Position numbers and translations under genes: made by a program. 14,045 bases of DNA from Candidatus Aenigmatarchaeota archaeon (GTDB lineage Archaea; Aenigmatarchaeota; Aenigmatarchaeia; Aenigmatarchaeales; JACQIB01), in contig JAZDNN010000013.1 in assembly GCA_043799675.1 (NCBI GenBank), positions 1-14,045 on the forward strand. Reading direction: 5' to 3'. Position 1 is the stretch's first letter; each line of letters starts with the position of its first letter. This document shows, piece by piece, positions 1,353-1,668 of the stretch. The notes under the pieces were generated by a model, which worked only from the letters and a program-made list of their open reading frames with translations, was not told the DNA's origin and ran no database searches.

Positions 1353-1668
1353 TCACGCCTGTGACAGCGTTATTTCAACGGTGCTGATGTTGAGCTTCTC
1401 CCCGTTCTCTACGGGGACTTCCTCGGTCCCTATCTTAACCAGCTTGATTTCGCTCCCGCATGCGAATTTTCGTCTGACTATCTCAGCTATGTCGACGGCA
1501 TGATTTATCGCCCTTCCCCTGGCCTTCAACACTATCTCCTTCCTGCCGCCGTTGAACTGGGTCATGCACGCAAGTACGTAGCTCATCGCGGGTCAAAAGT
1601 TAATCCAGCCGCAACTGGATAGAATTCTTTCCCACGAAAATCACGTTGCTGTCATTTTCCACTGTCAT
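1353..1668 (-). CDS. albA: DNA/RNA-binding chromatin protein Alba, split gene: exon 1 1625..1668, exon 2 1353..1593; 94 aa after splicing
   Basis: Spliced product [58 protein letters not shown]...ISTVEITL carries the Alba motifs GKKP.M.YVLA and KARG.AI..AVD.AE. SD GAGGTGA sits 5 nt before the ATG at 1668. The ORF track captures only exon 2 from an internal Met. Confidence 0.93.
1594..1624 (-). other. 31-nt bulge-helix-bulge (BHB) intron in alba mRNA
   Basis: Exon helix UCGUGGG/CCCGCGA (7 bp), central helix AAAG/CUUU (4 bp), 3-nt bulges AAU and UGA, inner stem AUCCAGU-UGCG-GCUGGAU. Cleavage after the second nt of each bulge gives GGA AAG AA|A CCC GCG ATG. Confidence 0.88.

Follow-up and report, generated by a model that had tools for sequence, protein, structure and literature searches.

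Results

The alba locus and the interruption of its reading frame

The DNA analyzed—hereafter the window, a stretch of 14,045 nt to which the position numbers refer—comes from contig JAZDNN010000013.1 of Candidatus Aenigmatarchaeota archaeon (GCA_043799675.1), a DPANN genome (Aenigmatarchaeota-like) of 748,753 bases in 45 contigs that is 83% complete (G000, the window being contig C3). On the minus strand the window carries an alba gene in two parts separated by 31 nt (Table 1). Positions 1716–4299 of that strand are occupied by a run of five ORFs (106, 187, 238, 162, and 143 aa), four of which were compared with Pfam and gave no match; and four—all save the 187-aa one—have a short N-terminus followed by a hydrophobic stretch, resembling archaeal pilin-type (class III) signal peptides, so that the run is possibly an operon for a pilus or surface structure. 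At 555–1178, likewise on the minus strand, lies a membrane protein of the VIT1 family (vacuolar iron transporter-like; Pfam E 2.4e-25).

As encoded, the frame that starts at the ATG of exon 1 ends after 22 aa at the TAA within the insert; the second part of the gene contains a 77-aa ORF (1353–1586), and the exon-2 ORF matches the Pfam Alba family (PF01918) with an E value of 4.2e-17 and 62.1 bits (cut-off 25) over profile positions 12–64 of 66. When aligned to 11 solved Alba chains, that 77-aa ORF begins only at their residue 13–23. The N-V-I-F-V-G-K-K strand that is absent from the exon-2 ORF has its source in exon 1, NV(I/V)FVGKK being the N-terminal strand of the intact relatives; and excision of the 31 nt rejoins the frame through V-G-K-K-P-A-M into a 94-aa Alba, whose predicted N-terminus matches that of the intact relatives almost residue for residue (...FVGKKPAM... 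motif). We found no further lesion in either exon, and a profile search of the whole genome—83% complete—gave a single Alba locus, namely the split gene of the window.

Ahead of exon 1 we read a Shine–Dalgarno-like motif and a TATA-like box (Table 1), the former being also present ahead of exon 1 in the alba loci of the relatives; ahead of the internal ATG (1586–1584) there is neither a Shine–Dalgarno-like motif nor a TATA-like box. The interruption falls in the turn (G-K-K-P) that links the first strand of Alba to its first helix; the lysine whose acetylation modulates the binding of nucleic acids in Sulfolobus is presumably located in that turn.

Table 1. Coordinates of the alba gene, of its predicted splice motif, of the putative expression signals, and of the EndA genes and the rtcB insert of the same genome (window positions unless a contig is given)
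Feature	Position	Strand	Remarks
alba exon 1	1625..1668	-	ATG 1668-1666; 14 codons, then two bases of the following Lys codon
31-nt BHB intron of alba (predicted)	1594..1624	-	in-frame TAA at 1602-1600
alba exon 2	1353..1593	-	third base of that Lys codon, followed by P-A-M...SQA; stop TGA 1355-1353
Exon helix, 5' strand UCGUGGG	1631..1637	-	7 bp, one of them U-G; pairs with 1586-1592
Exon helix, 3' strand CCCGCGA	1586..1592	-	pairs with 1631-1637
Central 4-bp helix, exonic 5' strand AAAG	1627..1630	-	pairs with 1596-1599
Central 4-bp helix, intronic 3' strand CUUU	1596..1599	-	pairs with 1627-1630
5' bulge AA^U	1624..1626	-	predicted cut between 1625 and 1624
3' bulge UG^A	1593..1595	-	predicted cut between 1594 and 1593
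Intron hairpin	1603..1620	-	7-bp stem 1614-1620/1603-1609, loop UGCG 1610-1613; contains the AGUUGCGGCU motif, common to some relatives
Shine–Dalgarno-like GAGGUGA	1674..1680	-	5 nt upstream of exon-1 ATG; putative function, read from sequence
TATA-like TATAAATT	1713..1720	-	about 45-52 nt upstream of ATG, overlaps the stop of the upstream gene; putative, read from sequence
Two tandem EndA paralogues	G000:C10:51442-52520 (L038:1474-2552)	-	proteins of 170 and about 189 aa (L038:2040-2552 and 1474-2043), both having an N-terminal and a catalytic C-terminal domain
31-nt insert of rtcB	G000:C16, about 57868-57898	+	between ...MPDGHWG and YGFPIGGV; read from sequence

The bulge–helix–bulge motif of the window's copy

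The borders of the insert fold into a motif of the bulge–helix–bulge (BHB) type, in which the intron side next to the 5' bulge consists of a single U1623–A1600 pair followed by a 2x2 loop and then by the 7-bp stem of the hairpin. Since the intron-side helix at the bulge thus amounts to one U–A pair before that loop, we regard the motif as relaxed and not as a strict hBHBh'. A sequence-only reading of this DNA had already drawn the exon and central helices, the two 3-nt bulges, the U–A pair, the internal loop, and the stem, and had deduced the 22-aa unspliced peptide and the 94-aa spliced Alba; its minus-strand letters over 1586–1637 match exactly, each structural element is present, and both products follow on translation. 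EndA is established to cleave BHB motifs after the second nucleotide of each bulge, which rule gives the cuts marked in Table 1.

The 64-nt stretch that comprises the motif has a minimum free energy (MFE) of -22.3 kcal/mol (z = -3.63), a stability attained by 0 of 200 shuffles. The MFE fold uses the adjacent register AGAA/UUUU, the BHB register lying 2.7–3.6 kcal/mol above it (-18.7 as drawn, -19.6 when constrained); over 16 intron-bearing loci that penalty ranged from 0.0 to 4.3 kcal/mol, being 0.0 in four loci of family f10, where the BHB fold is the MFE fold. BHB-like geometries of up to 40 nt whose exon helix reaches 7 bp or more occur 917 times in the 1.5 million strand positions of the genome (about 6e-4 per position); what takes the alba case beyond chance is that the geometry coincides precisely with the point at which both frame and family consensus come back and that it recurs in relatives. 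When the window was scanned with Rfam, no family reached its gathering score, the group I and group II introns included, for which a 31-nt insert would be far too short; nor did blastn-short of the alba intron against its own genome give a paralogue, the best other match being of 12 nt.

Recurrence of the predicted intron in related alba genes

Of 61 genomes that share the window's family, order, or class (the window's own included), 49 had an Alba match, and in five of those 49 the match started only at profile position 9–10; all five late-starting genes—the window's and four others—carry inserts at the window's site, those of the other four being 33, 33, 30, and 34 nt long and unrelated, or only partly related, in sequence. 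A scan of 371 genomes of the class, in 284 of which Alba was detected, with a pattern composed of the end of exon 1, a gap of 18–48, and the start of exon 2 matched 18 genomes, versus 1 for the reversed control pattern. Fourteen of the matches were BHB introns of alba, which figure is a lower bound because the pattern was narrow; the remaining four (G122, G135, G142, and G255; L207, L209, L210, and L219) either were not alba BHB introns or were unclear. In 160 loci from metagenome and genome collections, eight were interrupted: three repeated the loci of the relatives, one repeated a locus of the class scan, and four were new.

The distinct intron-bearing alba loci thus number 18, with inserts of 20–34 nt. 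In eight (the window, G008, G020, G023, G032, L057, L075, and L078) the insert splits the second Lys codon, as it does in the window; in the other ten (G133, G148, L093, G185, G190–G193, G206, and G216) it lies 4 nt further upstream, where the codon next to Gly is divided behind its first base. The loci with the upstream site belong to two other families (L208, L211, L093, and L212–L218), their central helices being UCGG/CCGA or UAGG/CCUA, and the shift between the sites equals the length of the central helix; this displacement could reflect either a sliding of the intron or an independent insertion. Two 3-nt bulges with a 4-bp central helix are found in 17 of the 18 loci, L093 having three of the four central pairs; and some relatives possess both flanking helices, as for example L034 (h=7, h'=6) and the f10 loci.

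The alba gene of G133 contains a second insert of 18 nt (L208:1576-1593, G133:C13), located between ...GVI and TQF... and containing two in-frame stops, which insert also fits the BHB geometry (CGUG/CACG, AU^A, AA^A, GGUU/AACC); this gene of 95 codons thus has two introns.

Reading-frame and covariation tests

We searched each locus by geometry alone—4 of 4 central pairs and 3-nt bulges, with the flanking pairs counted—and translated the excision products only afterwards. In 14 of 16 loci the top-ranked geometry was the one whose excision restores the frame, giving an open Alba reading frame with the residues G-K-K-P, G-R-K-P, or G-H-K-P; in the other two the second-ranked geometry did so.

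Covariation was evaluated on a MAFFT alignment of the eight same-site loci, which contained 7+3 cleanly aligned pairs. Standard pairs occupied 95% of the cells, versus 83.6 +/- 2.3 in the shuffles, and the covariation score was 0.396, versus 0.146, with 0 of 500 shuffles reaching the observed value in either comparison; when the partner was slid by 1–3 columns, the paired share fell to 42–61%. Four of the ten pairs had changed on both sides. The exon-helix pair between the third base of the Val codon and the third base of the Pro codon occurs as AU, GC, UA, and CG; and the central helix, which pairs exon letters with intron letters, occurs as AAAG/CUUU, GAAA/UUUC, GAAG/CUUC, GAAG/CUUU, and GCAU/GUGC.

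The conserved amino acids fix five of the seven exon-helix pairs. In the intronless genes, each of the two wobble pairs—that of the Val and Pro third bases included—can be formed in 55 of 115 distinct sequences, while in the closest intronless subset the Val–Pro pair can be formed in 19 and the other in 18 of 28 sequences, 13 of the 28 being able to form all 7 pairs. Because the exon helix thus largely pre-exists, being dictated by the conserved amino acids, its covariation constitutes modest evidence; the central helix between exon and intron, together with the frame test, weighs more.

Presence and absence of the predicted intron

The distribution of the intron is patchy: it occurs in none of the other 6 genomes in the family of the window, in 4 of 21 in family f3, in 2 verified cases of 70 in f24 (5 pattern matches), and in 7 of 44 in f10; and the alba gene is uninterrupted in G040, which belongs to the same genus as the intron-bearing G023. 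In L042, a locus from a metagenome, the gene upstream of alba is that of the window and exon 2 has 96% nucleotide identity to the window's, but there is a precise empty site (...I-I-F-V-G-K-K-P-V-M...). The same allele is found in a contig of sequencing run X1, in which identity is about 95% on both sides of a tract, 1587–1696 (110 nt), replaced by 75 unalignable letters; that tract corresponds exactly to the intron, exon 1, and the 5'UTR. So abrupt a change, from sequence of about 95% identity to a tract that does not align, suggests that recombination may have brought in or removed the intron along with the exon beside it.

In a search for a donor that consisted of eight comparisons, the 5'UTR, exon 1, and intron of the window were 64–67% identical to those of the intron-bearing f3 loci G008, G023, and G032, and exon 2 was 64–65% identical, so that no donor was evident among them. 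A FastTree phylogeny of 164 Alba rows over 77 columns gave 12 state changes for 16 intron-bearing rows, which result, with 76 of 161 branches unresolved, is too weak for counts of gains and losses; L208 was omitted from that tree because its second intron breaks the ORF.

Splicing enzymes and other candidate introns in the genome

The genome encodes two tandem paralogues of the tRNA splicing endonuclease EndA (Table 1), the second reading frame overlapping the end of the first; this adjacency of two genes fits a hetero-oligomeric enzyme. According to portions of PMC5829648, the (alpha-beta)2 and epsilon2 types, as well as DPANN enzymes with an extra loop, tolerate relaxed motifs; and we infer that the EndA of this organism accepts the relaxed form of the alba motif, in which a single intron-side pair adjoins the 5' bulge.

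The ligase RtcB is also encoded (524 bits), and its gene is likewise interrupted, by a 31-nt insert (Table 1), so that the ligase would itself depend on the same splicing. This insert forms a relaxed BHB with a UGGG/CUCA central helix, the bulges GU^A and AA^U, and a 9-bp intron-side helix, and its loop region AGUCGCGGCU resembles the AGUUGCGGCU of the alba intron. A search of the genome for the loop motif GU(U/C)GNGGC on a stem of 4 bp or more gave 10 matches, of which only those in alba and rtcB were convincing. In the 749 kb of the genome, aragorn found 4 tRNA genes without its intron option and 10 with that option, most tRNA genes being probably disrupted in ways that this program does not model.

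A genome-wide scan for BHB motifs at apparent frame breaks had been proposed on the basis of the sequence alone, and the candidates that it left after filtering were mostly noise. The relaxed search gave 97,678 geometries, which filters for the joining of ORFs reduced to 10,159 and then to 150 candidates, the screen not being exhaustive. Four of those candidates (C6:44788-44811, C6:1547-1598, C6:22723-22785, and C10:13599-13630) were taken further, and the flanking ORFs of the three on C6, on comparison with Pfam, gave no evidence of a split domain. The candidate at C6:44788-44811 was ruled out as a split gene, since the CYTH domain that follows C6:44811 starts at profile position 3, as expected of two separate genes. 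The candidate at G000:C6:1547-1598 (52 nt, plus strand) is BHB-like, has an exon helix of 10 bp, and lies between two protein-like open frames, neither half having a Pfam match.

Discussion

Nature of the insert

We conclude that the 31-nt insert is very probably a genuine archaeal BHB intron in the coding sequence of alba, which would be cut out and its exons joined in the cell. The sequence-only reading had leaned the same way, calling a real mRNA intron probable on the grounds that the splice sites predicted from structure and from protein homology agreed. That agreement reappears in the ranking of the geometry-only search, and the same-site relatives, the covariation, and the empty site speak for the probable intron; moreover, the comparison of related alba loci, which that reading had named as a check, yielded inserts at the same site that differ in sequence and length, keep the BHB, and exhibit compensatory changes.

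Were the transcript not spliced, the insert might be a regulatory hairpin or leader, with the 22-aa product as a leader peptide and a truncated Alba of 77 aa translated from the internal ATG, which alternative we consider very unlikely. The 77-aa ORF does open with an ATG, exceeds the Pfam Alba cut-off on its own, and is what gene callers would annotate; but that ATG lacks a Shine–Dalgarno-like motif and has its A paired in the exon helix, and the protein that started there would lack the first 13–22 residues that are found in all 11 of the solved chains matched. Furthermore, the N-V-x-F-V-G-K-K strand is kept in exon 1 of every intron-bearing locus despite many synonymous changes, which retention would be unexpected for a leader, and all the inserts are positioned so that the BHB cuts restore the frame. 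We give still less credence to a decaying pseudogene, in which a small insertion of DNA had killed alba. DPANN genomes lose genes, 87 of the 371 class genomes—many of them incomplete—have no Alba match, and the ORF is broken as encoded; yet the interruption is kept in 18 loci from at least three families with its pairing maintained by compensatory changes, neither exon has any other lesion, and exon 2 is 96% identical in nucleotides to that of the intact relative with the empty site. Nor does an intact alba elsewhere accompany a decaying copy, a circumstance that, combined with inserts of unconserved pairing in relatives, the sequence-only reading had held would count against an intron: the window's copy is the only one in the genome, within its 83% completeness.

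That the ribosome might bypass the 31 nt, by hopping of the phage T4 gene 60 type or by some other recoding, seems to us barely credible. Such a process would be in keeping with a short coding gap, a stop codon soon after the start of the gap, and a stable hairpin; the gap, however, is not flanked by the matched take-off and landing codons that characterize T4 gene 60, the gaps of 20–34 nt at two positions follow the BHB geometry and not codon matching, and the lineage has EndA, RtcB, and many predictions of intron-bearing tRNAs. Finally, an artefact of assembly or sequencing, which might be suspected in a fragmented metagenome-type assembly of 45 contigs, merits next to no weight, for the inserts occur with different sequences in many independent assemblies. 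Raw reads devoid of the insert had been named beforehand as the sign of such an artefact. A search of sequencing runs for the stretch gave five DNA runs with small shares and no RNA run; in our comparison of the contigs of runs X1–X4 with the window, X1–X3 left part of the stretch uncovered and only X4 bridged the intron, with a 151-nt contig that spans 1513–1663 with 0 differences, which means that the insert is present in those reads—X4 being possibly the source data of the genome itself.

Proposed mechanism

If the insert is spliced as a BHB intron, alba would be transcribed from the promoter ahead of exon 1, with a start about 20 nt before the exon-1 ATG, and the ribosome-binding site would likewise lie ahead of exon 1. 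In the pre-mRNA, the codons for F-V-G on the 5' strand would pair with those for P-A-M on the 3' strand to form the exon helix, while the last base of the Gly codon and the Lys codon would form the central helix with the four intron bases that directly precede the 3' bulge. The two tandem EndA paralogues would then cleave each 3-nt bulge behind its second base, in keeping with the BHB rule as given in the part of PMC5829648 that deals with it; RtcB would ligate the exons and probably circularize the 31-nt intron. The mature mRNA would thus encode the normal 94-aa Alba, and the unspliced RNA only the 22-residue peptide.

A broader reading, which we offer as tentative and rather doubtful, is that mobile BHB introns have landed repeatedly at the start of alba and that splicing ties the synthesis of the alba, rtcB, and cbf5 products to the capacity of EndA and RtcB. 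Its basis is that the conserved F-V-G-K-K-P-A-M codons alone fold into most of the exon helix; introns may accordingly have entered, or slid, at no fewer than two points 4 nt apart, together with a third site in one genome, and may come and go through recombination of the flanking exon. Since alba, rtcB, and the crenarchaeal cbf5 all encode RNA-associated proteins, splicing would couple their synthesis to the capacity of those enzymes; if this were true, it would amount to a circuit of post-transcriptional control in otherwise very reduced genomes.

Implications

The recurrence of the alba intron in a DPANN class, along with the rtcB intron in the same genome, suggests that the splicing of protein genes by the tRNA machinery is broader than has been assumed. 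For annotation, the consequence is that such genes are called truncated proteins—here one of 77 aa from an internal Met—or pseudogenes. The alba case also provides a compact, testable substrate, consisting of a 64-nt RNA, two EndA subunits, and RtcB, as well as a natural series of alleles with and without the intron for the study of the gain and loss of BHB introns.

Comparison with known systems

The BHB intron in the cbf5 gene of Crenarchaeota, the nearest parallel to our case, was reportedly described by Watanabe in 2002 and by Yoshinari in 2006, in addition to the study on which we draw here. According to that study (Yokobori 2009, PMC2738675), splicing of the intron from the pre-mRNA of cbf5, which gene encodes a pseudouridine synthase, was demonstrated experimentally. 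Within the portions consulted of reviews and structural papers up to 2025 (PMC5829648, PMC6379350, and PMC12397907) and of PMC2738675, cbf5 is the only archaeal protein gene named as having a BHB intron; and a full-text search of the literature, with subscription journals outside its scope, found no description of an intron in alba, in agreement with the sequence-only reading, to which no such case was known. BHB introns in pre-mRNA are therefore known from cbf5, while the BHB intron of alba is apparently undescribed so far.

As far as those sources go, alba resembles cbf5 in having a short, protein-free intron within a protein-coding gene, with exon–intron boundaries that form a BHB for the tRNA splicing endonuclease; in the patchiness of the distribution, cbf5 exhibiting lineage-specific loss; and in a host gene whose product is RNA-associated. 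To this may be added that the lineages with the cbf5 intron have a hetero-oligomeric endonuclease (Yoshinari 2006, as cited in sections of PMC5829648 and PMC6379350) and that the genome with the alba intron has two EndA paralogues. The two cases differ in the gene and in the lineage, which here is DPANN and Aenigmatarchaeota-like; in the nature of the evidence, the splicing of cbf5 being experimental according to the portions seen of that work, whereas that of alba is deduced from sequence; and in the position of the introns, which in alba occupy two sites 4 nt apart, plus a further one in one genome.

The rtcB intron of the same genome is similar to that of alba in its length of 31 nt, in breaking the frame within a conserved motif, and in its 4-bp central helix, 3-nt bulges, and hairpin; it differs from the alba intron in having a weak exon helix and a 9-bp intron-side helix, and the two have no significant overall similarity in sequence.

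Parts of PMC5829648 and PMC6379350 describe non-canonical introns of tRNAs whose BHB motifs are relaxed (hBH, HBh') and which EndA types of broad specificity cut, and to the extent of that description the alba introns have the same motif and the same predicted enzymes. By comparison with those tRNA introns, the window's alba intron combines a strong exon helix with a weak intron-side helix, and the site-1 copies present the reverse; but the alba intron, unlike those of tRNAs, sits in the coding region of an mRNA and contains an in-frame stop, so that the precision of its splicing would be read out as the reading frame.
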